This document shows, piece by piece, positions 3,129 to 52,000 of a stretch of DNA of 64,000 bases (its first letter is position 1; each line of letters starts with the position of its first letter). The translations under genes and the position numbers were made by a program. Where the stretch lies: the NCBI GenBank assembly GCA_041687095.1, contig JAWLCQ010000001.1:25664-89663 (forward strand). Direction: 5' to 3'. Below the pieces are notes generated by a model. It made no database searches. It worked only from the letters and a program-made list of their open reading frames with translations, and was not told where the DNA came from. Source of the stretch: Phycisphaerae bacterium (lineage in GTDB: Bacteria > Planctomycetota > Phycisphaerae > SM23-33).

Positions 3129-3286
3129 ACGGGGGGACCCGCACACCTTCCCTCGGGTGTTCTCGCGCACATGGGAAGGGTTTCCCACAGTTCCGAAACC
3201 GGAAATCTTGGCGGGTGTCGGGGTAGGGGATTCTCCTTAGTGCTGTTCCCGTATGGAGTAAGGTGAAGTTTTTGTCCGGTTTTTCC

Positions 3287-3315
3287 TTGTCCGGTGGGGG
3301 ATCCCGTGGTAGAGT
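3287..3315 (+). promoter_or_regulatory. Putative sigma70-type promoter for the cold-shock gene (TTGTCC-N17-TAGAGT)
   Basis: TTGTCC at 3287-3292, a 17-nt spacer and TAGAGT at 3310-3315, preceded by a T-rich UP-like tract (tttttgtccggtttttcc) in an AT-enriched island. This would give a roughly 155-nt leader. Confidence 0.3.
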
Positions 3316-3475: not shown

Positions 3476-3721
3476 ATGACCAAGGGCACCGTCAAGTGGT
3501 TCAACAATGCCAAGGGGTTCGGGTTCCTGCGCACCGAGGAGACGGCGGACGATATCTTCGTTCACCATACCGCCATCGAGTGCGACGGCTACCGGACCCT
3601 GAAGCAGGGCGAGCCGGTGGAATTCGATCTGGTGACGGGGCCGAAGGGCCTGAAGGCCGAACACGTGATCCGCCAGATGCAGGCGGCGCACGCGGCGGCG
3701 CAGCAGCAGGCTCCGGCGTAG
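3476..3721 (+). CDS. cspA: Cold-shock protein, CspA family (S1-like cold-shock domain)
   Basis: MTKGTVKWFNNAKGFGFLRTE..DIFVHHTAIE..GYRTLKQGEPVEFDL carries the RNP1/RNP2 motifs of CspA. The ATG at 3476 is in frame with ORF 3326..3721; the upstream part of that ORF is leader. Confidence 0.9.
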   Translation: MTKGTVKWFNNAKGFGFLRTEETADDIFVHHTAIECDGYRTLKQGEPVEFDLVTGPKGLKAEHVIRQMQAAHAAAQQQAPA

Positions 3722-3808: not shown

Positions 3809-4513
3809 CTACGCGTTCTCCGCGTGCAGTGGCAGGAACTGGGCCCACAGCGCCTCGAAGGACGCGGTGAACGCGCCTGCCAGGTTCGCGTCCTCGCACA
3901 GCAGGATATTCTCCTGGTTGTACTCGGCGGCGCGGCGGGTCCAGTTGTAGCTGCCCGTCAGCACCTTGCCGGCGTCGAACACGGCGAACTTGTGGTGCAT
4001 GTGGTACTCGGCGGAGTCGGTCCGCACGGGGATCCCCGCGCGAATGAACCGATCGATGTCGCTCCCCCGGGCTTGCGCCTTCTGATCGTCGGTGATGATC
4101 CGCACCGCCACCCCCCGCCGGTGCGCCTCCAGAATCGCCGTCGCGATCACATCGTGCGTGATGGAGAACACGCACACGTCGACGGTCCGATGGGCGGCCT
4201 GGAAGAGCCCGACGATGGTGGCGGCGCAGTCGTGCTCGGGGGCGAAGCGGGCCTGGAGCATCGGCCCCGCCGCCGGGGCGGGCAGCGCCGCCCACACCGC
4301 CTTCACCACCCCTTCCAGCCAGTCCGCCACCGCCCGGTCCTCCACGCACAGCCGCTGCCGCGCCACGTCAAACGCCTGCGCCTGCAGCCACAGGGCCTTC
4401 TGGGCGTTGAGTTCCGCCTCGCGCAGCATCTGCCCCAGCACCCGCTTCTCGCCGCGCGACAGGCAGTGGTCGTCCAGCGTGCGATTCAGAATCTCGTCCA
4501 GACCCTCGATCAT
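3809..4513 (-). CDS. Phospholipase D-like (single HKD motif) family protein: PLD/Nuc-like phosphodiesterase or phosphatidyltransferase
   Basis: HMHHKFAVFD...GSYNWT is a canonical HxK(x4)D(x6)GSxN HKD motif. The start at MIEGLDE is preceded by a perfect SD, AAGGAGG-7nt-ATG. The longer ORF-track start (4630) would overlap the upstream gene. Confidence 0.75.
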   Translation of the reverse strand: MIEGLDEILNRTLDDHCLSRGEKRVLGQMLREAELNAQKALWLQAQAFDVARQRLCVEDRAVADWLEGVVKAVWAALPAPAAGPMLQARFAPEHDCAATIVGLFQAAHRTVDVCVFSITHDVIATAILEAHRRGVAVRIITDDQKAQARGSDIDRFIRAGIPVRTDSAEYHMHHKFAVFDAGKVLTGSYNWTRRAAEYNQENILLCEDANLAGAFTASFEALWAQFLPLHAENA

Positions 4514-13500: not shown

Positions 13501-14518
13501 CGTGGGGGCGAAGTTCGGCCTGGAGGTCCTCGCCCGCCGCGTCGGGGAGAAGGAGCAGGCCGACCTCTGGCAGGTCCACGGCCTCCTTGACGAGTCCATC
13601 AACGTCTCCCGCTCCCTCACCGTCGAACTCAGCCCGCCCATCCTTCACGAGGGGGGGATCGTCGCGGGGCTCGAGTGGCTCGTCCGCTGGGTGGGCGAGA
13701 AGCACGGGCTCACCGTGGACCTCCACACCGACGACCACGCCACCACCGACCGCGAGGACGTCCGGGTCCTGCTCTTCCAGGCGGTCCGCGAACTGCTGTT
13801 CAACGTCGTCAAGCACGCCCGCGTCACCCGCGCCGCCGTCACCCTCGACCTCCAGGACGCCGACCACCTCCGCCTCACCGTCCACGACGAGGGCGTGGGC
13901 TTTGACCCGCAGGCCATGTGGAATCGCGCCCCCGCCCCGACCGAGGGCGGGTTCGGGCTCTTCAGCCTCCGCGAACGCCTCAACCTTCTCGGGGGACGCC
14001 TCACGATCGACAGCGCTGCGGGGGAGGGGGTGACGGTGACGATCGTGGCCCCGCGGAGGCACCTCGGGGCGGCCATCAAGACCCCCACCGCCCTCCGCCA
14101 CCGGGCCGCACCCGAAACGACCCCCGCGGCCGCTCCGCCGGAGGCCCCCGGAGAGGAGAGGCCCATTCGCGTCCTGCTCGCCGACGACCACGCCGTCGTC
14201 CGCCAGGGGATCCGCCTCCTGCTCCGTGACCAGCCCGACATTGAGGTCGTGGGGGAGGCGGCCGACGGCGACCAGGCGGTGGACAGCGCCCACCGCCTCC
14301 GCCCCGACGTCATCCTCATGGACTACAGCATGCCCCGCATGAGCGGGGTCGACGCCACCCGTGCGATCCACCGCGAGCTGCCCGGCATCCGTATCATCGG
14401 CCTGTCGATGTACGAGCAGCTCGACCGCGCCGCCGCCATGATCGACGCCGGGGCCACCGGGTACATCACCAAGAGCGGCCCCTCCGAGGAACTCCTCGCC
14501 GCCGTGCGGGGGGAATGA
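10562..14518 (+). CDS. Hybrid sensor histidine kinase: about 6-7 PAS/PAC domains, HisKA_3 (NarX-type) dimerisation domain, HATPase_c, C-terminal NarL-type receiver
   Basis: Repeated PAS signatures (TGYS.EE, DITARK/DITDRK linkers), H-box LAQILHDHLQQ, G-box GFGLFSLRERL..GG.L.I.S..G.G, receiver IRVLLADDHAVVRQGIRLLL..DVILMDYSMP. The start, MEDERHS (10562), is in frame with ORF 10022..14518, whose first 180 aa are low-complexity. Confidence 0.85.
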   Translation: MEDERHSTGDCTPADGLGGAAGGDGGRDLSAAEFRLIADSSYDWAYWQQANGTFAYLSPSCQRITGYSPEEFMADPELYVRIVHPSDREGVREHFRSHEDCVKQAPLEYRILRRDGEERWIGHACQEIHDAQGRLLGRRGANRDITAAKHMEAELRETQFRFDLALANAPVVLMEQDRDLRCLWMHHSQLGMQEEEVVGRTEEDLFGRDAAADVIRLKRRAIEEGGPARGEVRLQYRGEESWWNLHAEPRRDAQGRVVGVVSTAINVTEAHRAAEAVRASEQRLKTIIDGAGVGIASISREGKWEWMNDSLCEFLGFSREELMGLRWQDVTHPDDVAADEALAGRLRAGEISSYSIDKRYIRKDWQVVWGHLTVSRQTDPQGNPAFYIAVIRDITARKRAEEALREQEHFARRLIDSTLSGMYIYDTRQGQITYSNPQYERITGWSQAELNALAPEPFLDLFHPEDRPRVIEHIRAVREALGEEVWEIEYRFRRPEGTWIWCLSREAPFERDRDGTVRTYIGSFIDITDRKLAEDAVRRSEQRWRSVFAGAPIGMVITDLQGRFEHVNDAYCRLAGYTREELQAGDLSFLELTHPEDREETIRQAQRLIAGEIPTYSIEKRYVRRDGGVTWVRASAVLRQSEHHRAMQIIGLVEDITDRKRAEEALRESETRFRAAFADAPIGMVLVDPAGHYLYVNAAYCRIVGYSEAELLRPGFDFQRITHPDDVARQVAAIRRLLAGEIPSFFLEKRNVRKDGSIVWLRASASLRRNASGEPYQIIGLVEDVTDRVHAESALREQEARLRLATDAAHLGVFVWDVGSDTVTWENDRMYEIFGVSREDPPYNLAALMADIVHPDDRESFDANLRSGMTPGGTLHSIGRIRRKDGEYRWVEVAGRCEFDDDGACRRLVGILADITDRVRAEQQLREARDELEQRVRERTAELQRRADQLARLTSELTLTEQRERRRLAQILHDHLQQMLVGAKFGLEVLARRVGEKEQADLWQVHGLLDESINVSRSLTVELSPPILHEGGIVAGLEWLVRWVGEKHGLTVDLHTDDHATTDREDVRVLLFQAVRELLFNVVKHARVTRAAVTLDLQDADHLRLTVHDEGVGFDPQAMWNRAPAPTEGGFGLFSLRERLNLLGGRLTIDSAAGEGVTVTIVAPRRHLGAAIKTPTALRHRAAPETTPAAAPPEAPGEERPIRVLLADDHAVVRQGIRLLLRDQPDIEVVGEAADGDQAVDSAHRLRPDVILMDYSMPRMSGVDATRAIHRELPGIRIIGLSMYEQLDRAAAMIDAGATGYITKSGPSEELLAAVRGE

Positions 14519-14626
14519 TACGCGTTCCACTCAATTCTCGGGTGGGTGCCGTGGTTTGCGGAGCGCAGCGGAGCAACCACGTCCAATCGACGCTGCCTGC
14601 GAATTATCTGGGATGCGTATAAGCCA
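14517..14626 (+). repeat. Copy 1 of a roughly 105-110-nt conserved intergenic repeat (second copy at 35586-35692, inverted), starting at the kinase stop codon
   Basis: atacgcgttccactcaattctcgggtgggtgccgtggtttgcggagcgcagcggagcaaccacgtcc...ctgcgaattatctgggatgcgtat is about 90 % identical to the reverse complement of 35586-35692. It has internal inverted symmetry (attctcggg / cccgagaat, atacgc / gcgtat). Confidence 0.6.
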
Positions 14627-16996: not shown

Positions 16997-18192
16997 GGCC
17001 GGGCCTCCGGGGGGGTGGGGAGGCGCTCGTCGGCAAAGATCCGGTCACACCGTTGCGGGTCCACCACGTTCACGCTCCGCGAGGCGTTCAGCAGGGGGGG
17101 CGGGGCGGTCCCGGGGGCGATGGTTACCAGCAGGACGGTGGCGTTCTGCAGAGCCGGCGCCCCGACGCGGGCCGCCAGGGCGGCGGGCGGCACGGCCGGT
17201 GCGTCGTCCACGTCGGCGAGGGCGTCGAGCAGGCGGGCCCGCTGCTCCAGACCGGGCGCGGGGGCGTGGACGAGGATCCCCCCCTCGCCCGCCAACGCCA
17301 TCCCCACGCGATACCCGCGCGCGAAGGCCACGTCCACCACCGTCGCCGTGAACCGCAGCAGTTTCTCCCGTGCCTGGACGGCCTCGGGCGCCTCCCCGGG
17401 CGTTGCGGCGTCCAGCAGCACCCACAGCACGTCCGGGCGCGTGCGGGCCATCTCGCGGACCACGGGGCTGGCGCGGCCGGCGGAGCGGCGCCAGTGGATC
17501 CAGCGGGGGTTGTCGTCGGGGCGGTACTCCCGCAGGCCGAAGAACTCGTCCTGCCCCCCCGTCGCGGGGCTGGGGGCGCTGTTGGAGATCTCCACCGCCC
17601 CGCGCGGCAGCAGCCGCCCGAGCACCTTGCCCCGCGCGGGCCAGACCACGAGGCCATGGTCGCACGGGTAGCGGGCGAATGCCCGGATCAACCCGAAGGG
17701 GAACGTGGTGCTCACGCGGATCTCGCGGAGGCGCCTCCGCCCGCGGGTGTGGGCGACGAACCGCCCCCCGCTGCGGAAGACCGAGCGGCGGGGCAGGTGC
17801 AGGCAGTAGGCGGGAACCCACTCCATGCCCTCGGCGGGGAGTTCCTCGACGTAAAGCCCCAGCGACGAGCCCCACCGCCGCTCGTTCCGCAGGAAGTATC
17901 CCACGTGGGCGACCTGGTTCTGCCAGACCCGCCCCGGCGCTTCGCGACGGATCGAGACCCCGGCGACGTTCCGCCTCGCCATCACCGCCGACACGTGCAA
18001 CGCCCCCATCATCGCCCCGAAGAGCACGAACGACAGCGGCGCCTGCGAGTTCACCCCCGCCGCCCCCACCGTCAGCGAGATCGCCAGGAAGATCCACCCG
18101 CTCATCGTCAGCCGAAAGTGCACAGCCACGCGGCGGCGGCGCTTCCGCCGGCGGGCGGGGGGAGGAGGGGATTGTTCCGTTGGCATCTTCAC
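16987..18192 (-). CDS. DUF58 domain protein (MoxR-associated, VWA-like)
   Basis: DEFFGLREYRPDDNPRWIHWRRSAGRASPVVRE matches the DUF58 signature FxGxREYxPGDxxRxIxWK. The N-terminus is a TM hairpin. GTG/ATG starts lie at 18192/18186. Confidence 0.85.
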   Translation of the reverse strand: MKMPTEQSPPPPARRRKRRRRVAVHFRLTMSGWIFLAISLTVGAAGVNSQAPLSFVLFGAMMGALHVSAVMARRNVAGVSIRREAPGRVWQNQVAHVGYFLRNERRWGSSLGLYVEELPAEGMEWVPAYCLHLPRRSVFRSGGRFVAHTRGRRRLREIRVSTTFPFGLIRAFARYPCDHGLVVWPARGKVLGRLLPRGAVEISNSAPSPATGGQDEFFGLREYRPDDNPRWIHWRRSAGRASPVVREMARTRPDVLWVLLDAATPGEAPEAVQAREKLLRFTATVVDVAFARGYRVGMALAGEGGILVHAPAPGLEQRARLLDALADVDDAPAVPPAALAARVGAPALQNATVLLVTIAPGTAPPPLLNASRSVNVVDPQRCDRIFADERLPTPPEARPCP

Positions 18193-18223
18193 TGCTGTCG
18201 CAGGATCCTTTGGGGAACCAAAT

Positions 18224-18258
18224 CCGAAACCCGAAACCCGAAACCCGAAACCCGAAAC
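18224..18258. repeat. Heptanucleotide tandem repeat (CCGAAAC)x5 in an AT-enriched spacer upstream of the DUF58 gene
   Basis: ccgaaacccgaaacccgaaacccgaaacccgaaac, followed by related aaatccaaaacacgaaatccaaatg. Local GC is far below the 70 % background. Confidence 0.7.
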
Positions 18259-18396
18259 AAATCCAAAACACGAAATCCAAATGACAAAAACCAGTCTCCG
18301 ACGCCGCGGGCAACCGGGTGCCCAATGCCACGACTGCGCTGTCTGCCACCGTGCCCCAAGAAACGCTACGGGTTCTGCGAGTCCCTGACGTCTGGG

Positions 18397-18726
18397 TCAA
18401 CGGGGCCAGCGGGTATTAAGGCTTTGCAGCGCAGCGGCGGCCGAGGCGTCGCTGTCGGACTCGGCGGAGGCGCTGACGGCCTGGTCGCGTCGTCGGCGGC
18501 AGAAGGCCTCGTAGTTCATCCCCGCCAGGCGGAGACAGACAGCCGCAATGGTCCCACACAACAGCGACAGTGTGCAGCACAGGGCACCCAATACGAGCCC
18601 AACCGATCCGGCCAGTAGGCCTCCGAGCGAGTAGTCGATTACGTGCGCAGTGCATAGACCTGCCCAGCCGGCGGCGGCGGCCCATGCAATGCAGCAGGAC
18701 CAGAGGATCACGGCCAGCACTTTCAT
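18397..18726 (-). CDS. Small hypothetical membrane protein (109 aa, 2-3 TM, Cys-rich) between MoxR and DUF58
   Basis: MKVLAVILWSCCIAWAAAAGWAGLCTAHVIDYSLGGLLAGSVGLVLGALCCTLSLLCGTIAAVCL.. with SD GAGGTG-6nt-ATG. It is the terminal part of run-through ORF 18397..20469. Confidence 0.45.
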   Translation of the reverse strand: MKVLAVILWSCCIAWAAAAGWAGLCTAHVIDYSLGGLLAGSVGLVLGALCCTLSLLCGTIAAVCLRLAGMNYEAFCRRRRDQAVSASAESDSDASAAAALQSLNTRWPR

Positions 18727-18803
18727 GTTTTGCACCTCTGCCAAGCAGCCAATCAACGAACACCCGCTGCACAACTGGTCTCCAGCCGTCCGGCATTCCG
18801 GTC

Positions 18804-19739
18804 CTACTGCGGGACCGGGACGGTTTCCAGCAGGCGGGCGAAGATCTCGTCCGCCCCGCCCGATGCTCCGTCCTGGGAGAAGCCTCGCGTCACCAGGCGG
18901 TGGGCGCAGACGGCGGGGGCGAGGTCCTTTACGTCGTCGGGGACCACGTACTCGCGCCCCGCCAGCAGCGCCGCCGCCCGCACCGCCTGCCCCAACGCCA
19001 GCGACGCCCGGGGGGACAGCCCGATCGTCAGCTCCTCGCTCCGCCGCGTCGCCTCCGCGATCGACAGGATGTAGTCCTCGATGGCCGGGTCCATCCGCAC
19101 GGCCAGTACCTGCTCCTGCAGCGCCAGCACGTCGGCGGTGTCCATGACGCAGGGCAGATCCGGCAGGCGGGTGCTGGCGGGGCGGAGGCGGAGGATCTGC
19201 CGCTCCACGTCGCGGTCCGGGTATCCGATCCGCACCCGCAGCATGAACCGGTCGAGCTGGTTCTCGGGGAGGAAGTACGTGCCCTCGAACTCGTAGGGGT
19301 TCTGCGTCGCCAGCACCAGAAACGGGGGGCCGAGGGGGTAGGTCTTCCCGTCCTGGGAGACCTGGGATTCGCTCATCGCCTCCAGCAGGGCGCTCTGGGT
19401 GCGGGGGGTGGTGCGGTTGATCTCGTCCACCAGGACGATGTGGGCGAAGACCGGCCCGCGCTTGAAGGCGAACTCCCCCGTCGTCCCGTCGTAGACCGAC
19501 ACGCCCAGGATGTCGCTGGGCAGCAGGTCCGGGGTGAGCTGGATGCGGTGGAACGTGCAGTCGATGCTCCGCGCGACCGCCTGGGCGAGGACGGTCTTGC
19601 CCACGCCCGGGACGTCCTCCAGCAGCACGTGCCCCTTCGCCAGAAGCGCCGTCAGCACCCGGTCCACCGCCTGGGGCTTGCCCAGCAGGACGCGCTGCAC
19701 ATTTTCCCGCAACGCGGTCAGTTTCTGTCGTACGTCCAT
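18804..19739 (-). CDS. MoxR-family AAA+ ATPase
   Basis: Walker A GVPGVGKT, Walker B LVDEINR, and typical MoxR length (311 aa). It is the first gene of the operon with DUF58 and TGase. Confidence 0.9.
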   Translation of the reverse strand: MDVRQKLTALRENVQRVLLGKPQAVDRVLTALLAKGHVLLEDVPGVGKTVLAQAVARSIDCTFHRIQLTPDLLPSDILGVSVYDGTTGEFAFKRGPVFAHIVLVDEINRTTPRTQSALLEAMSESQVSQDGKTYPLGPPFLVLATQNPYEFEGTYFLPENQLDRFMLRVRIGYPDRDVERQILRLRPASTRLPDLPCVMDTADVLALQEQVLAVRMDPAIEDYILSIAEATRRSEELTIGLSPRASLALGQAVRAAALLAGREYVVPDDVKDLAPAVCAHRLVTRGFSQDGASGGADEIFARLLETVPVPQ

Positions 19740-19885
19740 GATCGCCTTTGCTTCTCCGGGGGCTGCCGCAGTGCACGGGGCGTTTGGGCCCCCGTTCGGT
19801 GCTGCGGGGCAACTTCGCGAGGGTCTCGGCTTTTCCTGCCTTTCGCCGACGGCGGCTGCGGGTATTATAAGGGAACGAGTGCCTT

Positions 19886-20530
19886 ATGTTCACAGGGATC
19901 GTACGACACGTAGGACGGGTGGTGCGCCTCGCCCCCACGTCGGCCGGTCGGCGGATCGAGATCGACCTCGGCCCGCTGTGTGCGGGCCTGCGCGCGGGCG
20001 ACAGCGTGGCGGTCAACGGGGCGTGCCTGACGGCGACGACGCTCGCCGCCCCCGTCGTCGCCTTCGACGTCGTCAGCGAGACGCTCGCGCGGACCACGCT
20101 GGGCGCGTTGGCGACGGGGGCCCGCGTGAACCTCGAACGGGCCGTCCTCGCCGCCGACGCCCTCGACGGGCACATCGTGCAGGGGCACGTCGACGGGGTG
20201 GCCGGCGTGCGGCGGATCGATCGCGGCGGGCAGTGGCTCGTCGAGTTCGCCGGACCCCCCGAACTCACCGAGACCATGGTCCCCAAGGGCTCGGTGGCCA
20301 TCGACGGGGTCTCGCTGACGCTCGTGGACGTCGGGAGCGGGACGTTCTCCGTCGCCCTGATCCCCACCACGCTCCGCGACACCACGCTGGAACACCTGGC
20401 CATCGGGTCGAAGGTGAACATCGAAACCGACGTCATCGGCAAGTACGTCCGCAAGATCCTGGAGGGCATGGGAGCGACAACGCGCGGCGGGCTGTCGATG
20501 GATGCGCTGCGCCGAAACGGGTTCGCATGA
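19886..20530 (+). CDS. ribE: Riboflavin synthase alpha subunit
   Basis: MFTGIV... NGACLT ... duplicated lumazine-binding half-domains (VNGVSLT-like DGVSLTLV), 214 aa. Confidence 0.9.
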   Translation: MFTGIVRHVGRVVRLAPTSAGRRIEIDLGPLCAGLRAGDSVAVNGACLTATTLAAPVVAFDVVSETLARTTLGALATGARVNLERAVLAADALDGHIVQGHVDGVAGVRRIDRGGQWLVEFAGPPELTETMVPKGSVAIDGVSLTLVDVGSGTFSVALIPTTLRDTTLEHLAIGSKVNIETDVIGKYVRKILEGMGATTRGGLSMDALRRNGFA

Positions 20531-20591
20531 GAGGAAGCTGTCAGCTCTCAGCTCTCAGCGTTCAGCAGAGGAAGCATCGGCCACGCGGCTG

Positions 20592-20630
20592 TCGCTGAAA
20601 GCTGATCGCTGAAAGCTGAAAGCTGAAAGC
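20592..20630. repeat. Heptamer tandem repeat (GCTGAAA)x4-5
   Basis: gctgaaagctgatcgctgaaagctgaaagctgaaagctg, flanked by (CAGCTCT)x2 at 20551-20564 and (CAGCGAT)x3 at about 20659-20679. Confidence 0.7.
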
Positions 20631-20680
20631 TGCATCTGTTCCCCGATAACCTTCCGATCAGCGATCAGCGATCAACGAAT

Positions 20681-20788
20681 CAACCAGTCAACCAGTCAAC
20701 CAGTCAACCAGTTAACCAGTCAACCAGTTAACCAGTTAACCAGTCAACCAGTTAACCAGTCAACCAGTCAACCAGTTAACCAGTCAAC
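20681..20788. repeat. Octamer tandem array (YAACCAGT) x about 13 immediately upstream of pdxA
   Basis: caaccagtcaaccagtcaaccagtcaaccagttaaccagtcaaccagttaaccagttaaccagtcaaccagttaaccagtcaaccagtcaaccagttaaccagtcaaccaatcaacc: 8-nt unit with C/T alternation at position 1, 108 nt. Confidence 0.8.
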
Positions 20789-20811
20789 CAATCAACCAAC
20801 CACCGATCCTC

Positions 20812-21843
20812 ATGCCAGACGACCGTCCCATCATCGGAGTGACCATGGGCGATCCCCTCGGGATCGGGGCCGAGATCCTCGTCAAGGCCCTGGCCGATCC
20901 CGAGCTTCGCCGGCGGGGGCGGTTCGTTATCTTCGGGGCCAGCGAGCAGCTCGCCTACACCGCCGACCAGCTCGAACTCGACTTCCCCTTCTTCCGCGAC
21001 CACCACGAGAACGTCCGCCGCTACCTGCACGACGTGGTGGTCCTGGACTACGACGAGATCGCCATCCCCCCGGCCATGGAGCGCGGGCCCTCGCGGGTGG
21101 GGGGGGAGGCCAGCTTCCGCTTCGTCGACGATGCCATCGCCGCCGCCCTCGCCGGGGACCTCGACGCCCTCGTCACCGCCCCCATCTCCAAGACCTCCTG
21201 GGCGCTGGCGGGGGTCAAGAAGTACCCCGGGCACACCGAACTCCTCGCCGACCGGACCAAGACCAAACGCGTCGCCATGATGTTCGCCTCCTCCCGCCTG
21301 AAGGTCGCCCTGGCGACGATCCACGAGCCCATCGCCCGCATCCCCAACCTTTTCAACATCGGGTGCGTGCACACCCCCATCGACCTCGCCGACCAGGCCC
21401 TGCGCCAGTGGTGGGGCATCGCCCGCCCGCACATCGCGGTCTGCGCCCTGAACCCCCACGCGGGGGAGGAGGGGCGGTTCGGGGACGAGGAGGAGCGGGT
21501 GATCGGGCCGGCGATCCTCATGGCCCGCGAGTCGGGGATCGACGTCTCCGGCCCCTACCCCGCCGACACGCTCTTCCTGCGGGCGTCGCGCGGGGAGTTC
21601 GACTGCGTCATCGCCATGTACCACGACCAGGGGCTCATCCCCATGAAGCTCCTCGCCTGGGACGAGGTGGTCAACGTCACGCTCGGCCTGCCCATCCTCC
21701 GCACCTCCCCCGGGCACGGGACCGCCTTCGACATCGCCGGCAAAAACCGCGCCGACGCCTCCTCCTTCACCGCCGCCGTCCGCCTGGCGCTGGACCTCGC
21801 GATCCGCCGCCGCGGTCCGCAGCCGCCCCCGACCGCCGCGTAG
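20812..21843 (+). CDS. pdxA: 4-hydroxythreonine-4-phosphate dehydrogenase
   Basis: PdxA signatures across the full length: IGVTMGDPLGIGAEI, ALVTAPISK, GHTE, HIAVCALNPHAGEEG, MYHDQGLIP, SPGHGTAFDIAGK. Confidence 0.9.
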   Translation: MPDDRPIIGVTMGDPLGIGAEILVKALADPELRRRGRFVIFGASEQLAYTADQLELDFPFFRDHHENVRRYLHDVVVLDYDEIAIPPAMERGPSRVGGEASFRFVDDAIAAALAGDLDALVTAPISKTSWALAGVKKYPGHTELLADRTKTKRVAMMFASSRLKVALATIHEPIARIPNLFNIGCVHTPIDLADQALRQWWGIARPHIAVCALNPHAGEEGRFGDEEERVIGPAILMARESGIDVSGPYPADTLFLRASRGEFDCVIAMYHDQGLIPMKLLAWDEVVNVTLGLPILRTSPGHGTAFDIAGKNRADASSFTAAVRLALDLAIRRRGPQPPPTAA

Positions 21844-21867
21844 GTGGCGGACGGGAAACGGAAGGGC

Positions 21868-22097
21868 CTCACGCAAAGGCGCAAAGGCGCAAAGGGAAGA
21901 AGAGGCAGCGGGAAGAAGAAGCCTGCACCGTCCCGCGCACGGCGCGCTTCATGGACGGGATGGACTCGATGGACAGTATGGACGCCATGGACCCGCGGGG
22001 TTCCGCTGTGCGGTCCTCTGCGTAATCTTGAAATCTGTGCAATCCCTCTCTCTCCGAGCTGTTTCTTCCCCTTCGCGCCTTTGCGCCTTTGCGTGAG
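21868..22097. repeat. About 30-bp near-perfect inverted repeat (arms 21868-21899 and 22065-22097, each containing (GCGCAAAG)x3) flanking about 165 bp that include a 23-codon Met-Asp-repeat micro-ORF
   Basis: Arm 1 is ctcacgcaaaggcgcaaaggcgcaaagggaag; arm 2 is cttccccttcgcgcctttgcgcctttgcgtgag (the reverse complement, with one indel). Between them ATGGACGGGATGGACTCGATGGACAGTATGGACGCCATGGAC is an in-frame MDGMDSMDSMDAMD... ending in TAA at 22022. Confidence 0.6.
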
Positions 22098-22250
22098 ACT
22101 TCCCCCGGTTCCCGGTTCCTGGCTCCTGGTTCCTTGGTCCCCCGGTTCCCCGGTTTCGACATTCCCGTACTCCCGCCCTCCCTCCCGCGGTAAATTTGCA
22201 TTTCGCGTCTAAGAACGTCCCTCCTGCGTCGTGATAGGGGATGGAGACCG

Positions 22251-22802
22251 ATGCGGCTCCGGAGACGCTGCATGAAGGGAGACAACCGCGAGGCGGACTG
22301 GGTTCGGTCCGCCATGGCCCGCTACGAGGGCCCCCTGCTCCGCTATGCGTTGCGCATCTGCGGGAGCGAGGAGTGCGCCCGCGACGTCGTGCAGGACACG
22401 TTCCTCCGCATGATCGAGCACAAGGGCCCCGGCGACGACCACCTCGCGGAATGGCTCTTCACCGTCTGCCGCAACCGTGCCATCGACCTCTGCCGAAAGG
22501 AACGGCGAATGACGCAACTGGACGCACCCATCGACACCGCCGCCTGCCCCGCCCCCCCGCCCCCGGCCCTGGCGGCGGCCGCTGAAACCGCCGCCGCCGT
22601 CGCCTCCGCCCTCGACCACCTGCCCCCCAACCAGCAGGAGGTCCTGCGGCTGAAGTTCCAGGACGGGTTCTCCTACAAGCAGATCTCCTCCATCACGGGG
22701 CACTCCGTCTCCAACGTGGGGTTCCTGATCCATACCGGTATCCAGACGCTCCGCCGCTCGCTGCGATCCAGCAGCCCCTCGGCGATCGGGGAAGGAGTCT
22801 GA
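22251..22802 (+). CDS. ECF-type RNA polymerase sigma-70 factor
   Basis: Region 2 (ARDVVQDTFLRMIE, WLFTVCRNRAIDLCRK) and region 4 HTH (LPPNQQEVLRLKFQDGFSYKQISSITGHSVSNVGFLIHTGIQTLRR). GGAG SD before the ATG at 22251; alternative start at 22272. Confidence 0.85.
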   Translation: MRLRRRCMKGDNREADWVRSAMARYEGPLLRYALRICGSEECARDVVQDTFLRMIEHKGPGDDHLAEWLFTVCRNRAIDLCRKERRMTQLDAPIDTAACPAPPPPALAAAAETAAAVASALDHLPPNQQEVLRLKFQDGFSYKQISSITGHSVSNVGFLIHTGIQTLRRSLRSSSPSAIGEGV

Positions 22803-30951: not shown

Positions 30952-31096
30952 CCGTGGCACGGGCGTCTCGCCCCTGCGGAGAGGCGAGAACGGCCTCGCG
31001 GCGAGCCCAAGCGCCCCCAATCCACGGGGGTTTCTCCGCCGAAGGCCACGGGCTTTCCTGCCCGTGGGACCCATGGGCGAGACGCCCGTGCCACGG
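30952..31096. repeat. Perfect 22-bp inverted repeat (CCGTGGCACGGGCGTCTCGCCC / GGGCGAGACGCCCGTGCCACGG) separated by about 100 bp, within a 476-bp intergenic region
   Basis: Arm 1 at 30952-30973, arm 2 at 31075-31096. The loop contains a further short hairpin, ccacgggctttcctgcccgtgg. No credible ORF. Confidence 0.7.
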
Positions 31097-35501: not shown

Positions 35502-35585
35502 CCACCTGGTCGGGGTACATGCAGGTGTCGAGGCGTCCCGCCTCCAGGGCGTCGGCATCGGGTTTCCCCGCCGCCCGAAGGGCAC

Positions 35586-35692
35586 TCATACGCATCCCAG
35601 TTAATTCTCGGGCAGCGTCGGTCTGACGTGGTTGCTCCGCTGCGCTCCGCAAACCACGGCACCCACCCGAGAATCAAGTGGAACGCGTATCA
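35586..35692 (-). repeat. Copy 2 (inverted) of the roughly 105-nt intergenic repeat seen at 14517-14626
   Basis: Its reverse complement, atacgcgttccacttgattctcgggtgggtgccgtggtttgcggagcgcagcggagcaaccacgtcagaccgacgctgcccgagaattaactgggatgcgtatg, aligns with copy 1 at about 90 % identity. It lies between the convergent esterase and nucleoside hydrolase genes. Confidence 0.6.
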
Positions 35693-35749
35693 TGCCCTGC
35701 CGGATCAGGGCCTGGTGATCGTGCGTGTTCATTTGCGGGCTCCTGGGGT

Positions 35750-45827: not shown

Positions 45828-46005
45828 GTACGCCGGGGCCCGGCAGGCGTTTCGGGGGGAGGCAAGCGCATCTCTTCGTGCCGTGCCGTTTTCAGAATTC
45901 ACGATGGCAGCAAACCCCATCGTCGCTCCGACGATGGGGACCGGACAATGCGATTGAACCGCGGGCGTGCCCACGAGGCGCGCCCGTCACCCAAGGAGAG
46001 GGCCT

Positions 46006-49000
46006 ATGTCCGCGGATGCGGTGCAGCGCGCCAAGGTGCGCGGGAGCCTGACGAACGGGTCGGGGCGGATCGAGCTTCTGGAGCAGCGGATTCTTCTCAG
46101 CGGCACGCCGCTCCCCGACGCCGCCCGCCTGGGCCTGATCGAGGGCCTGACGGAGTTCGCCCAGTGGACCGACCGCCTGGGGCAGACGGAGGCCTTCACC
46201 ACGGGGCTCCCGCTGAGCGACGGGGCCACCCTGGGCACGGTCACCGCCGCCGGGGACGTCGTGCAGACCTATCTCGTGGATCGCGTCTGCCAGGTGCTCC
46301 AGAGTCCCGGAGCGACGCTGGAGGACGTGGTGAGCGCCCTGCGGGATCTGGGCGGCAGCTTCGTCGGGGATCTCGGGGGCCGGCAAGTTCCGCTGGACGT
46401 GCTGGTCGACCCGGCAGCCGTCGTCGGGGCATGGGTGGATTCCGAGATCTCCTTCTCCCTGCCGTTCCAGGCGCTGCTGCGCCCGCCGTCCGGGGTGGAC
46501 CTGGACGACGCGCTGGGGGCCCTGGGGTTCACCTCGGGCGCCGAATTCGCCCTCGATGCCCTCGGGAGCCTCACGCTGGACCTGACGTTCGGGTTCGACC
46601 TTTCCGAAGGCCTCGGTCAGGCCGAACAATTCTTCCTCCGCCCCGTCGAGATGCTGCTGGAGGCGGACCTGTCCGGCGCCGACTTCGATCTGCCCGATCT
46701 GCGCATGGGCTTCATGGATCTGGGAATCACGCACGGATCGATCTCACTGTCCGGATTGGCCGACGTGAGCTTCGTCAACCCCGACGCCGACCTCCTGGGC
46801 AGGATCACCCTCGATGAACTGCGGAACACGGCGATGGACGTGCTGGCCGCCGTGACGCCCGGGGGCACGCTCCAGGCGTCGCTGCCGCTGTCGGGGGTGC
46901 TGGGGGCCATGGGCCTGGGAGCCCCGCAGATCTCGCTGAACTGCCTGGACGTGTTCCAACTGCCGGTGGAGATGGGCTTCAATGCCGACTTCGAGGCGCT
47001 GCTGCCCCTGGGGCGGATCGATCCGGCGATGGTGCTGGAGGCGTTCGACAGCCTCGGGGCGTCGTTGACGTCGCTGCAGCGATCCGACGTGTTCGCGCGG
47101 ATCGAGGGACTGGGCGCCCAGAAGCTCTCCGATCTGCTGCGGCTGGGGGAGAACCTCCGGGGGATCATCGACGAGGTGCTGATGCGCCCGATCGATGGCG
47201 CCCACGGGCTCTACGAGTCGGCCTTCGACTCGGCCCAGAGCCTGCTGGAGCGCCTGGCGGCCTACCCGCAGAGCGTCCTGAGCAGCAGTGCGGACTACCT
47301 GGACGGCGTGCTGACGTACACGCTTCGTTTCGCCGCGAGCGACGCCCTGGAGGGGGACTTCGCCTACGACTACTCCGACGGTCCGCTGTCCCTGAGCGCT
47401 ACGGGCACGGTCAGCGGCGAGGTCGGGACCGAGGTGGCGCTGACGCTGGGGCTGGACCTGTCGGCCCTGTCGGCGGAGGTGATCGCGGCCGGGGCCGCCC
47501 CGGTCGGTGGGCAACTGGATCGCTCGGCCGAGTTCTCCGTGCAGGTGGGATCGGACGCGCCCGTGCGCGTGACGGTTCCCGCCGAGGCGACGGCAGACAA
47601 CGCCGGCCTGGACGATCTGGTGGCCGACATCAACGCCGCGCTGGCCGACGCGGGGCTGGTGGCCTGGACGGGTGCGGGGGCGGTGCTGCTGGTCGAGGCC
47701 CGCCGGGTCACCGTCGAGACCGCCGACGGGGAGCGGCAGCGCATCGCGCTGCGGACGCTGGGCCCGTGGGTGGCGGCTCGCCTGAGCGTCACGCCCGGGG
47801 CGGGGGCGGGGCAGCTTGGCTTCACGAGCGCCATGGAAGACCACTGCCGCCCCGAGGACTTCGCGTTCGTGCAGGACGCGGGGGCGTCGGCGAGCATGCT
47901 TGTGGCGGCCCAGATGCCCGAGGGGCACGGGCGCCTGGGCATGCTGGGTGGGATCACGTTGACAAACGGAGCCGCCTGGGTCGGCGGGACCGGGTACACC
48001 CCCGCGAGCCCCGTCCCAGCCACCGTGTCGTTCCAGATCGGGCAGGCGGGCGTTCGCTACGGTCTGGGCGACCTGGCGGAGACGATCGGGTCCGACGCGG
48101 CCGGTCTGGTCGAGGACTCGCTGACGACGGACGTGCAGGCGGGCTACCAGTTCACGGTGACGATCGAGGGCCAGACCGCCGAGTTGCTGGGCCTGGACCC
48201 GCTGGCGGTGCGGAGCATCGAGGTGCTGTACCCGGACGTGGTGGGCGGCCTGGCGCCGGTCATCAGCACCGTGGGGATGGACGAGCTGCTGGCCGCGGGG
48301 CAGCAGATCACGCGCGGGCAGATCGTCGAGGCGCTGCACGCCCTGGTGGACTTCCTGCAGGGGCTCGAATCGCTCCAAGGCCCGCTGAGCTGGCGCCTGC
48401 CCGGAACGGGCCTGAGCGTCAACGAGATGGTGGACTGCGCCCAGGATCTCGCGAGGCTCATCGAGCGGATCAACGCCGAGGGGCTCACCGCGCTGAACGA
48501 CAGCCTGTCGGGCCTCGCCGCCACCGTCCGCGACGTGCTGGGGCTCGCGGAGGACCAGTTCCTCCTGCGGATCGAGCCCGCGTCGGCCGCCGGGGAGGCC
48601 GCACTGCGGATGACGCTGGACCTCGACTACGCCTTCGACCGCCAGGCGGCGGTGAACCTGGACCTCGAAACGCTCATGGGGGCGAGCCTCTGGCCCCAGA
48701 TGGCGGACTACACGAGCATCCTCGGCGAATCGGGCGGGGGGACCGTTCGCGTGGACGGCAGCGCCCACGTCACGATCGACCTGGGGGTGGGCCTGTCGAG
48801 CCTCGATCCGTTCCTGTACGAGGGCACCGCCATCGGCGGGGCGCTCCGCGTGCAGGGGCGCGACCTGGCGTTCGACCTCACGCTGGGCCCGCTGCCGGGC
48901 ATGGCCGTCGCGGGCGGGCATCTGCTGGTGGGCGACTGCCCCGAGGGCGGACCGGCGGCGTACGGTGCGGGCGAGATCCCGGCCGCTGCGTTCCGCGTGG

Positions 49001-52000
49001 GCCTCACCGACACCGATCCCGCCACCGTCGAGCGCTACTACCTCTCGTCCATCGCCGACAGCGACGTGACGGGGACGCTGGACGCGCAGGTGGACCTGGT
49101 CCTGCCCTTCGAGGGCGACTGGGTGGACCCCGCCGACGCGGACCTGTGGCTGCTGGCGGGCGTGGACGCGCAGGGCGCCCTGGCGGACGTCGACGGTGAC
49201 TTCCCGACGTTCGTCATGCCCGACACGCTGAACCTCGAGGCGATGATCGACGGGCTGCGGACGCTGCTGACCCGCCTCCGCGACGCCTTGGGCACGCAGG
49301 CGTTCAACCTCAGCCTGCCCATCGTGGGCACGCAGCTCAACACCGCCTACCTCGACTCCCTGCTCGCCCGCCTGGGCGGTTGGTCGCCCTACGACGCCCT
49401 CCACGCCGCCACCTGGGCGACGAACAACCTCGCGGCGATGTTCGGGGCCTCCGCCCAGATCCAGGCGGCCGACACCGGGGACATGGACGCCGCCGACGCG
49501 GCGGCCGAGTGGATCATCCAGCTCTCCGACACCTACGCCTTCGGGGCCGCCGACGTGGACTTCGACCTGGGCCTGCCCGGGCTGGGGCTGGACATCGACG
49601 CCCACGCGGACGTGAGCCTCGACTGGGTCTTCAACCTGGGCCTGGGGTTCAGCAAGAACAAGGGCTTCTACCTCATCACCGACGACGGGGGGTTCGCGAC
49701 GGGCCTGGCGTTCGCCGGAGAGTCGCCCACGCTGGGCGTGGCGCTCACCGCGGGCGTCACCGATCTCGACGCGAGCGGGCGACTGGGCTTTCTGAACCTG
49801 ACGGCCGAGGCGATCCCCGGGGCGCCCATCGGGGCGAGCGGGCAGTTTGCCATCGACCTTTCGGGCCTCAACGGGCGGGTGTACTACAACCGCCTGGCGT
49901 CGTCGATCTACGACGTGGACGTCGCCTACGCCCTGTCCGCCGACGTCAATGCGCGGCTGGAGATCGCCTACAGCGCCAACTTCCCGTCGATCCTGTCGGA
50001 CCTGGTCATGCACTGGTCGTTCGACAACGACGACGCCACGGTTGACGCGCCGCTGTCGCTCGCCCTGGAGGACATCCGCATCGACCTGGGCGGGTATCTC
50101 GGTGGGGTCGTTTCGCCCGTGGTGGAACGCATCAACGAGGTCTTCGAGCCCCTGCAGCCGATCCTGAACGTTCTCAACACGACCGTGCCGGTGGTCTCGT
50201 ACGTCCTGGACCGCGACGTGACGATCCTCGATCTCGCCATCATGGCCGGGGGCTCGGGGGGCTACGACGTCGAGTTCCTCTCGGACGTCGCGGCCGTCGT
50301 CGACCTCGCCGGGCGGCTGCCCGCGCTCCAGTCGCACTACATCCACCTGGGGACGTACACGTTCGGTTCGGGCCTCGTGTCCGCCGACTCGCCGCTGGAC
50401 CTGGCGGTCAACGGCGGGGCGTTCGAGGGCAACGAGAACGCCCTGGTCGACGCCCGCAACGCCGGCGGCGGGTTCGGGGCGTTCCTGGACGACCTGCAGG
50501 AGATCGGGATCGAGATCCCGCTGCTGGCGGAGCCCCTCCGCGTCGTCGAGTTGTTCCTCGGCCGCGATGTTGAACTGGTGCAGTACACCACCCCGCGCCT
50601 GGCGCTGGACATCGACTTCCGCCAGCAGACCCCGATCATCTTCCCGTGGCTGGTGTTCACGATCGGGATGGACGCGAGCATCTCCGCGCAGGCGGCCTTC
50701 GGGTACGACACGCGCGGGTTGCGGCAGTACGCCGACGGGGGCGACACGGGCGACCTGCTCAACGGGTTCTACATGCGCACGGGCCCGCAGTACCCGCTGA
50801 TCCGCTTTGCGGGGCACGCCGCGCTGGGCCTGGGCGTGAGCCTCGGGGGCGTCGTCGCCGCCGGGGTCGAGGGCGGGATCGGGCTCGATGGGCACATCTA
50901 CGCCACCGACGCCGACGGCGACGGGCGCCTGCACTGGGACGAGCTGCCCGCGTTTGAACCGGGCGAGATCCTGTCGCTGTTCGATTGCGACGGGAGCATC
51001 TACTTCGACGTCCGCCTGTGGTGGGAAACGCCGATCGACGACGGAACCTACACGCTGGCGAAGGTGACGCTGATGGACTTCGGGGCCGGCACCGGCGGGG
51101 CCATCGAGCACGAGGCGGACATCGAGTTCGACCAGCGCGCCATGGGCAATTCCGTGGACCTCGGCCAGGCCCCGACCGCTCGCGTGTACCACCCCGAGCT
51201 GTGGGATTCGCGCGGAGTGCAGTGGTACCGCTTCTCCACCGACCGCGACAACGAGGTCTTCGATTTCTCGGCCGTCCGCGCCAGCGCGGGCAACGACATG
51301 GCCCTGGCCGTCTTCAACGCCGACGGGGAGCGCCTCGCCATGTCGGCCGGCTGGGGCAGTTCGCAGGCGACGCTCAACGACGTCCGCCTGGGCGAGCGGG
51401 GCGTGTACTACCTCGCCGTCATGTGCAACGACCCCGAGTGGCCGCTGGAGAGCGTCTCCGTCACGCCCAACACCGACGCGCTGACGGGCACGGTGGTGTA
51501 CTACGTCAACGACCTGGACGACTCGCCCGACCCGTACCTGATGGGCAACCCCTACACGTCCGCCCCGGGCGACGACGCCAACAGCGGTTTGGACCCCGCG
51601 CACCCCAAGGCGAGCATCTCCGCGGTGGTCTCATCGTTGACAGGCAACGAGGGGCGCGTCTACATCCTCGTCGACAGCGGGCACTACCGCGTGGACGACG
51701 AGGCCGAGCGCATCCGCCTGGCGCAGGGCAACGTGTGGTTCGTCGGGACCTGGCACACGAACGTGACGTTCGCCGCCGGTCCGCTGTTCGACCTGAACAA
51801 CGCCGGGGACGTCCACCTCTACGGGTTCAATCTCTACGGCGAGGGGACCGCGACGGCGGTCCGTACGCGCGGGGACGGCCTGTGGGACGCAGCCGCGGGG
51901 CATTATGCACCCGTCGATTCGCTCGTCATCGAGGGCAACCGCTTCGACGGCGTGGGCGTGGGCATCGACGCCGGGTGCTTCCAGAGCGTGGTGATCTCCG

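Follow-up and report, generated by a model that had tools for sequence, protein, structure and literature searches.

Short tandem repeats inflate the ribE-pdxA spacer of a Phycisphaerae bacterium, with an octamer type that appears to recur ahead of start codons in related bacteria

Why the spacer between ribE and pdxA should consist almost wholly of short tandem repeats, and whether these repeats influence the downstream gene, is the question raised by a 64-kb stretch of DNA from a Phycisphaerae bacterium (contig JAWLCQ010000001.1). This stretch, hereafter the window, has a guanine-plus-cytosine (GC) content of 70% and comes from one assembly, so that the number of octamer units given below rests on that single assembly. 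The spacer spans positions 20531-20811 (281 nt), and its GC content is 0.51 versus 0.70 for the window, in agreement with the low GC content pointed out in an initial annotation of the DNA. The four repeat blocks which that annotation placed in the spacer are all present, both by direct reading and in Tandem Repeats Finder (TRF). The spacer is inflated about six-fold by short tandem repeats. Judging from the sequences compared, the octamer type found here recurs ahead of start codons in related bacteria, and an on/off switch is not supported; the effect to be expected is at most a graded tuning of translation. The features of the locus are as follows.

19886-20530, plus strand: ribE, riboflavin synthase alpha chain, an open reading frame (ORF) with a GC content of 0.91 at third codon positions and a TGA stop codon at 20528-20530.
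20536-20632, plus strand: interrupted hairpin predicted by RNA folding from inverted heptamer arrays, with array 1 as the 5′ arm and array 2 as the 3′ arm.
20542-20569, plus strand: array 1, (CAGCTCT)x2 with the variants CAGCGTT and CAGCAGA, by direct reading.
20588-20635, plus strand: array 2, (GCTGAAA)x4 and GCTGATC, flanked by GCTGTC and GCTGCAT, by direct reading.
20655-20675, plus strand: array 3, (CGATCAG)x2 and CGATCAA, by direct reading.
20672-20799, plus strand: octamer array, made of TCAACGAA, 13 perfect TYAACCAG units and two TCAACCAA units, by TRF and direct reading.
20800-20811, plus strand: linker CCACCGATCCTC from the array to the start codon, 12 nt without a Shine-Dalgarno motif, by direct reading.
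20812-21843, plus strand: pdxA, 4-hydroxythreonine-4-phosphate dehydrogenase, identified through PF04166 homologues.

The history of the spacer can be read from related genomes. The nearest PdxA relatives, at 57-66% identity, are encoded by metagenome-assembled genomes labelled Phycisphaerae, Sedimentisphaerales or Planctomycetota (species-representative genomes), and the best identity in a large protein collection is 74%, apart from one 100%-identical entry (P0001). In a tblastn search, ribE was found directly upstream of pdxA and on the same strand in 22 Planctomycetota loci (within L002-L027 and L081-L084); in L082, the ribE orthologue has the Pfam Lum_binding domain. The spacers of these 22 loci have a median length of 44 nt and extremes of -4 nt (stop/start overlap) and 152 nt, and none has comparable arrays. 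Hence, the 281-nt spacer represents a lineage-specific expansion inside an ancestral operon, and the array is more likely to be an intercistronic leader than a pdxA promoter. The latter had been assumed initially, but a consensus scan of 20300-21000 found no sigma-70-like promoter on either strand, with the reservation that Planctomycetota promoters may not fit sigma-70. The only sigma-70-like site lies upstream of ribE, where it belongs to moxR on the minus strand, and no intrinsic terminator was found anywhere in the ribE-pdxA spacer. An Rfam 15 scan of 17900-22500 at a permissive E-value returned only sub-threshold miRNA matches, which are low-complexity artefacts.

Two further arrangements were seen around these genes in relatives. 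Eight loci (L002, L005, L007, L009, L012, L014, L015 and L018, at about 3150-3300) share a layout between a divergent membrane-protein gene and ribE, consisting of (ATTGAYW)n, TTATAAT, inverted (TCAATAG/TAAATAG)n and the ribE ATG. Their heptamer arrays thus flank a -10-like box, and copy number differs between species. Separately, in four Phycisphaerae relatives where ribE is not upstream of pdxA (L001, L006, L016 and L029, at about 3985-4000), the -10-like boxes TATAAT, TAAACT, TAGAAT and TAAACT, respectively, stand 7-8 nt ahead of the pdxA start. This placement suggests that the pdxA mRNAs of these four may be leaderless or near-leaderless.

The octamer array dominates the spacer: together with the hairpin it makes up 224 of the 281 nt, and nearly the whole spacer is tandem repeats. 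TRF describes it as 15.9 copies of the consensus TCAACCAG at 20672-20798 with 90% matches and gives it a score of 198, the highest in the window, the runner-up array scoring 71. The 13 perfect units occupy 20680-20783 in the C/T order CCCCTCTTCTCCT, with one degenerate unit in front (TCAACGAA) and two behind (TCAACCAA); the original count of about 13 units therefore fits the perfect ones, and three degenerate ones come in addition. All 13 copies of YAACCAGT in the window lie within the array, versus 1.06 expected from shuffles, and not even a singleton occurs elsewhere in the 64 kb. The array, 128 bp long and outside both the ribE and pdxA ORFs, is rich in C and A with one G per unit, and RNA folding predicts it to be near structure-free (-18.5 kcal/mol over 171 nt). 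It has no ATG, GTG or TTG, and the T-variant units generate TAA stops. Neither a small spacer ORF nor a longer PdxA N-terminus is therefore tenable, the array having no start codon and TAA codons in the pdxA frame at 20713 and 20737. A minus-strand sigma-54 promoter was also considered, as (TGGTTGAC)n has by inspection the GG-N8-TTG spacing, and was rejected: there is no conserved GC at -12, and such a promoter would fire antisense into ribE, contradicting gene polarity. Likewise, a pairing of UCAACC with GGUUGG near the 16S rRNA 3′ end was considered by inspection and discarded on the ground that this segment presumably sits in helix 45, as in the E. coli structure.

The position of the array relative to pdxA depends on the correct start codon. 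Homologue N-termini set it at ATG 20812: 59 of the 98 homologues begin 7 residues ahead of the IGxTMGD motif, and one of them (P0009) begins MPDDRPI, as does PdxA when read from 20812. The 100%-identical entry P0001 (332 aa) begins instead at the internal ATG 20845, behind an in-frame GGAG and 11 codons past the point where the conserved N-terminus MPDDRPIIGVT begins; the methionine at 20845 is conserved in all 98 homologues. We attribute this miscall to the true start having no Shine-Dalgarno sequence. Counted with its degenerate units, the array stops 12 nt before ATG 20812, and the perfect units stop 28 nt before it, which corrects the 23 nt given initially.

No GGAG, GAGG or AGGA occurs in the 40 nt upstream of 20812, and this segment holds 3 G residues versus 12-20 at the other gene starts checked. 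In the same window, a GGAG, GAGG or AGGAG motif stands about 8-13 nt ahead of the csp, extracytoplasmic function (ECF) sigma factor, anti-sigma and small membrane-protein genes, and at moxR a GGAG lies about 19 nt ahead of the start. Thus pdxA is the one clearly Shine-Dalgarno-less start in the neighbourhood, and it coincides with the octamer array, which occupies the place of a ribosome-binding site. Starts of this kind depend on a local lack of structure. In an accessibility model, the segment from -20 to +15 around the start is unpaired with a probability of 0.49 in the native leader, versus 0.30 at 0 units and 0.33 +/- 0.10 for random genomic replacements.

The same octamer is found elsewhere. 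A metagenome scan for (AACCAGTY)3AACCAG returned at least 120 loci. Among the matches listed, the array-bearing contigs range in GC content from 0.32 to 0.74 and have unrelated flanks, and arrays reach about 28 units. The two contigs that were typed via a conserved protein are both Planctomycetota/Phycisphaerae. A scan of a viral collection gave a single match and has no power as a control. Polarity was counted on the 116 distinct AACCAGTY arrays among the matches listed, with gene starts that are ORF-based and not curated: a long ORF begins no more than 30 nt downstream in 25 sense versus 6 antisense cases, and no more than 80 nt downstream in 38 versus 16. Pfam-confirmed genes within 40 nt of an array number 11 sense versus 3 antisense, the sense side comprising CNNM, DLH, MoxR, FG-GAP, NrfD, Rce1-like, NUDIX, ADH, CbiQ, SSF and L5, and a GGAG is present in the short linker in only 1-2 of these 11. 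Inverted pairs of the form 5′-(RACTGGTT)n-loop-(AACCAGTY)n-3′ occur in 16 loci, the opposite polarity in one. Divergent genes flank several of these pairs, so that each gene has its own sense C/A-rich array beside its start.

One recurrence is ahead of rplE, encoding ribosomal protein L5. In Sedimentisphaerales-like genomes (L201 and L206-L211), the rplX-rplE spacer of the ribosomal-protein operon contains an array of 2-4 AACCAGTT units that stops 5 nt short of the rplE start codon. In L201 the spacer ends in (AACCAGTT)x4-ACAAG-ATG, and L211 has two units at 98% L5 identity. Relatives whose L5 is 91-98% identical keep the array at 2-4 units, and (GAATAGT)x3 and a small conserved hairpin stand in front of it. 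More distant rplE relatives have three degenerate units, ACCAGTT-AACCAGTT-GAACAGTT. Several database L5 proteins carry a false N-terminal extension (...PVNQLTSYKM) translated from the array.

Arrays of this kind change in length. In two comparisons of contigs with 100%-identical flanks, unit numbers are unequal (6.8 in L123 versus 5.8 in L148; 12.8 in L167 versus at least 14.8 in L186), while in six contig pairs the arrays are identical, and diverged orthologous arrays differ in both unit count and C/T pattern. Together with the 2-4 units at rplE, this bears out the proposal that such arrays are slippage-prone, as seen at loci other than pdxA. The C/T alternation in the pdxA array had been taken to argue against a recent expansion of one unit. 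That argument carries little weight: the perfect units (104 nt) are identical save at one dimorphic position, TC two-unit blocks recur, and similar mosaics are found in many independent metagenome arrays. The C/T mosaic is better regarded as the product of continuing one- or two-unit slippage.

Unit sequence also turns over at orthologous sites. The orthologous moxR 5′ spacers (L103, L212-L215; proteins 86-88% identical) contain unrelated units in four genomes, namely AACCAGTY, AGCCACW (with a partner CTRGTGG 190 nt away), GACAAGC/GCTTGTC and AGCCAMW. The two partnered spacers fold at z = -9.6 and z = -3.6, the former being a near-perfect palindrome of about 250 nt (L212), and paired inverted arms at moxR always match each other. 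The presence and position of the array are thus kept while its unit sequence is not, which argues against a sequence-specific binder. This turnover fits selection on a physical property, such as single-strandedness or paired stems, or a purely mutational origin. Quasi-palindrome correction is a known process, and on this basis the inverted arrays could arise if slippage alters one arm and an intrastrand template switch then transfers the alteration to the other.

Upstream of the octamers, the heptamer arrays of the ribE-pdxA spacer were called by TRF as AGCTCTC x3.4 (20536-20559), GCTGAAA x5.6 (20594-20632) and CGATCAG x3.4 (20655-20678). Arrays 1 and 2 are reverse complements, 84-88% complementary (CAGCTCT versus GCTGAAA, whose reverse complement is TTTCAGC), and are predicted to form a 97-nt hairpin of -59.7 kcal/mol (z = -5.67; none of 200 shuffles as stable) beginning 6 nt past the ribE stop codon. 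Its stem consists of 6-bp helices parted by single mismatches, and its apex is a small G+C hairpin. Array 3 has the CAGC core in common with array 1 and is 86-88% complementary to part of array 2 (20592-20612), which offers an alternative pairing with the 3′ arm of the hairpin; this alternative fold is weaker (-34.4 kcal/mol, z = -3.2). The complementarity of arrays 1 and 2, the hairpin and the complementarity of arrays 2 and 3 had been overlooked in the initial annotation.

A dispersed element of the repetitive extragenic palindromic (REP), bacterial interspersed mosaic (BIME) or miniature inverted-repeat transposable (MITE) type was considered as the source of the hairpin and rejected, as a repeat search of the whole window found no second copy of either arm. 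The window does contain a separate 113-nt dispersed repeat that looks REP- or MITE-like (14511-14623 and 35585-35697, inverted, 91% complementary, both copies intergenic) and a shorter pair of 34 nt (82-115 and 31062-31095, 88%).

Arrays with other units occupy neighbouring spacers. Upstream of ribE, in a co-directional cluster of moxR, a small membrane-protein gene and a DUF58 gene, (AAACCCG)x5.6 at 18220-18258, read as (CGGGTTT)n on the sense strand, lies 28 nt upstream of the DUF58 start (18192, minus strand). In the spacer between pdxA and the ECF sigma factor gene (21865-22155), (CGCAAAGG)x3 at 21872-21895 has an inverted partner, (CCTTTGCG)x3 at 22070-22093. These arms close a stem of about 230 nt (z = -4.3) that encloses (ATGGACNNN)x5 at 21951-21992, with (CCCGGTT)x7 behind it at 22103-22155. 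The array-bearing adjacent spacers are therefore the ribE-pdxA spacer and two neighbours, with unrelated units, and nine other spacers of the window have none. Among loci selected through PdxA, arrays that repeat a 6-10-nt unit four or more times occur at 8.2 per 100 kb in Planctomycetota versus 1.8 in other phyla (about 4.5-fold), and nearby pairs of same-unit arrays are inverted in 6 of 6 cases, with no direct pair. Repeats of another scale were noticed in an ORF of more than 6000 codons (45958-63999) that runs off the window end; it contains internal repeats of about 2 kb, in direct-repeat families spaced 1.85-2.0 kb.

The explanation that we tentatively prefer, at somewhat below an even chance, is that the spacer constitutes a slippage-built, Shine-Dalgarno-independent pdxA leader combined with a hairpin between the cistrons, comparable to the TAACTGA repeats known from Beggiatoaceae. 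An ancestrally short ribE-pdxA region would have grown to 281 nt through replication slippage of 7- and 8-nt units, and the spacer would be transcribed within one ribE-pdxA mRNA. The hairpin after the ribE stop would act as a 3′ stability barrier or as a partial terminator uncoupling both cistrons. The G-poor, unstructured (YAACCAGU)n tract would replace the Shine-Dalgarno site as a single-stranded landing pad, with initiation supported by ribosomal protein S1 or by some other binder of single-stranded RNA. Unstructured C/A-rich leaders can reportedly support or enhance initiation. The number of units would then tune translation quantitatively, with no on/off switching.

Several observations weigh against this leader model. 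In the accessibility model, the native value lies only about 1.7 standard deviations above the random replacements and supports the model weakly, and no monotonic trend with unit number appears from 0 to 24 units. The sense bias of the Pfam-confirmed genes is modest (one-sided p of about 0.03). The 16 units at pdxA are far above the 2-4 before rplE, so that the array may be neutral over most of its extent. The array upstream of the DUF58 gene is G/U-rich on its sense strand, and a G-poor leader is thus no general rule. No T-run stands behind the hairpin (sequence after the stem: CAUCUGUUCCCC), which does not have the form of an intrinsic terminator. Finally, the spacer could hide an unrecognised promoter.

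The principal alternative, which we rate as rather unlikely, is that the repeats of the spacer are a functionless by-product of frequent slippage of 7-8-nt units, with intrastrand template switching making the inverted arms and arrays building up in any non-coding DNA that can bear them. This would account for the array-free ribE-pdxA spacers of the 22 related loci, for the unrelated units both in three adjacent spacers of the window and in orthologous moxR spacers, for the higher array density in Planctomycetota and for the near-identity of the units, which implies a recent origin; the over-representation of heptamers in many bacteria, possibly through polymerase slippage, points the same way (PMC4692102). 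However, neutral slippage does not predict the sense-strand polarity toward start codons, the 16-to-1 polarity of inverted pairs among the matches listed, the retention of the motif at the rplE ribosome-binding position across species, or the coincidence of the array with the Shine-Dalgarno-less pdxA start. The occurrence of the octamer in at least 120 contigs with start-codon polarity has also been weighed as a sign of reiterated sites for a specific YAACCAGT binder (S1, a cold-shock protein, a CsrA-like protein or a DNA regulator) serving a network that includes pdxA. An 8-nt period suits the footprint of an OB-fold or cold-shock domain, and a csp gene lies in the window at 3476-3721. The same interpretation was proposed for the TAACTGA repeats (PMC4679880). 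This explanation, which resembles the iterated regulator sites suggested initially, is nevertheless improbable: it is weakened by orthologous moxR spacers that keep no unit sequence, by the array-free ribE-pdxA spacers of relatives and by the single location of YAACCAGT in the 64 kb. In addition, at least 120 matches need not exceed chance when 241 million metagenome records are scanned and the possible units run into thousands, and an 8-bp period puts successive sites on different helix faces, which is awkward for a double-strand DNA regulator.

It had also been suggested that the array acts in a phase-variation-like manner, as a contingency locus in which unit number switches or strongly modulates the pdxA promoter. 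The copy-number variation of such arrays between otherwise identical contigs and the location directly upstream of pdxA are compatible with this idea, but the hallmarks of contingency are missing and we regard it as very improbable. The array is neither in a reading frame nor between promoter hexamers: there is no promoter consensus in or near it, its 128 bp cannot fit between -35 and -10 hexamers, and an 8-nt change in a leader shifts no reading frame and no hexamer spacing. Moreover, the operon of ribE and pdxA is ancestral, pdxA serves vitamin B6 synthesis as a housekeeping gene of a free-living environmental bacterium and is not a surface or host-interaction gene, and similar arrays precede diverse housekeeping genes (L5, MoxR, NUDIX, ADH and CbiQ). 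The slippage-prone short tandem units near a gene start do recall the contingency loci of Haemophilus and Neisseria, from which the pdxA array differs in its 8-nt units, its environmental host and the lack of any evident on/off consequence.

Among known systems, the closest to the leader model are the TAACTGA direct repeats of marine Beggiatoaceae, some Cyanobacteria and Bacteroidetes (MacGregor 2015, PMC4679880). These repeats occur in forward orientation a few nt from start codons, mostly without a ribosome-binding site and also in ribosomal-protein operons; their function is unproven, and translational control and a binding-protein interpretation were proposed (PMC4679880). The pdxA array resembles them in its sense-oriented short units ending near the start, 12 nt before the ATG, in the missing canonical ribosome-binding site, which is also usual for TAACTGA, and in having no predicted structure. 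In both systems, the genes that follow are functionally unrelated, and some of them belong to ribosomal-protein operons. Differences are the YAACCAGT octamer versus a heptamer, the phylum Planctomycetota, 16 units here (and up to about 28 in metagenome loci) versus mostly 2-6, and the use of unrelated units at orthologous sites here. A possible further difference is that YAACCAGT forms a single array within the 64 kb of the window, the TAACTGA motif being genome-wide. The YAACCAGT/TYAACCAG unit is not mentioned in PMC4679880.

Other comparisons concern the arrays as repeats and the hairpin as a stem-loop. In E. coli, REP-type intercistronic stem-loops stabilise the upstream cistron, as in malE-malF. 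The ribE-pdxA hairpin is similar in being a stable structure right after the upstream stop, in a co-directional pair and without a U-tract; it differs in that its stem is made of tandem heptamers without a second copy in the window, and a comparable role here would be putative. Heptamers of the short tandemly repeated repetitive (STRR) type have reportedly been described in cyanobacteria. Many bacteria have an excess of heptamer repeats, and intergenic simple sequence repeats with heptamer units, such as GGGAATC in Xanthomonas and GGGGAYT in Nostoc, include inverted pairs and change rapidly in length (Rehm et al. 2015, PMC4692102). All of these share with the present locus long intergenic arrays of the 7-nt class in non-pathogen or environmental genomes, extensive variability in length and sequence between close relatives, some inverted pairs able to form stem-loops and slippage as the invoked origin. 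The Xanthomonas and Nostoc units, however, are G-rich and were studied as G-quadruplex formers, which the octamer, having one G per unit, cannot be, and proximity and polarity to start codons is not their defining feature.

Start selection and translation rates are poorly understood in Shine-Dalgarno-poor Planctomycetota, Bacteroidota and many Cyanobacteria, and a sense-oriented, slippage-prone leader, with L5 among its cases, provides a concrete and easily manipulated test element. For annotation, such arrays mislead gene callers, as with the pdxA product called 11 codons short and the falsely extended L5 proteins, and they are a probable cause of broken or distorted short-read assemblies. 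Orthologous sites with co-varying inverted arrays constitute a natural experiment that sets stem selection against template-switch mutation. In a broader proposal, which we find doubtful at present, tandem 7-8-nt arrays such as (YAACCAGU)n would be a general evolvable substitute for the Shine-Dalgarno sequence in Phycisphaerae-class Planctomycetota: single-stranded leaders that load ribosomes and act on translation of the next gene as a rheostat set by slippage of their units, with the inverted versions as selected stems, the arms of which co-evolve as their units change. If this were true, the ribE-pdxA spacer would be an unusually long case of an undescribed, phylum-wide tuning of translation.

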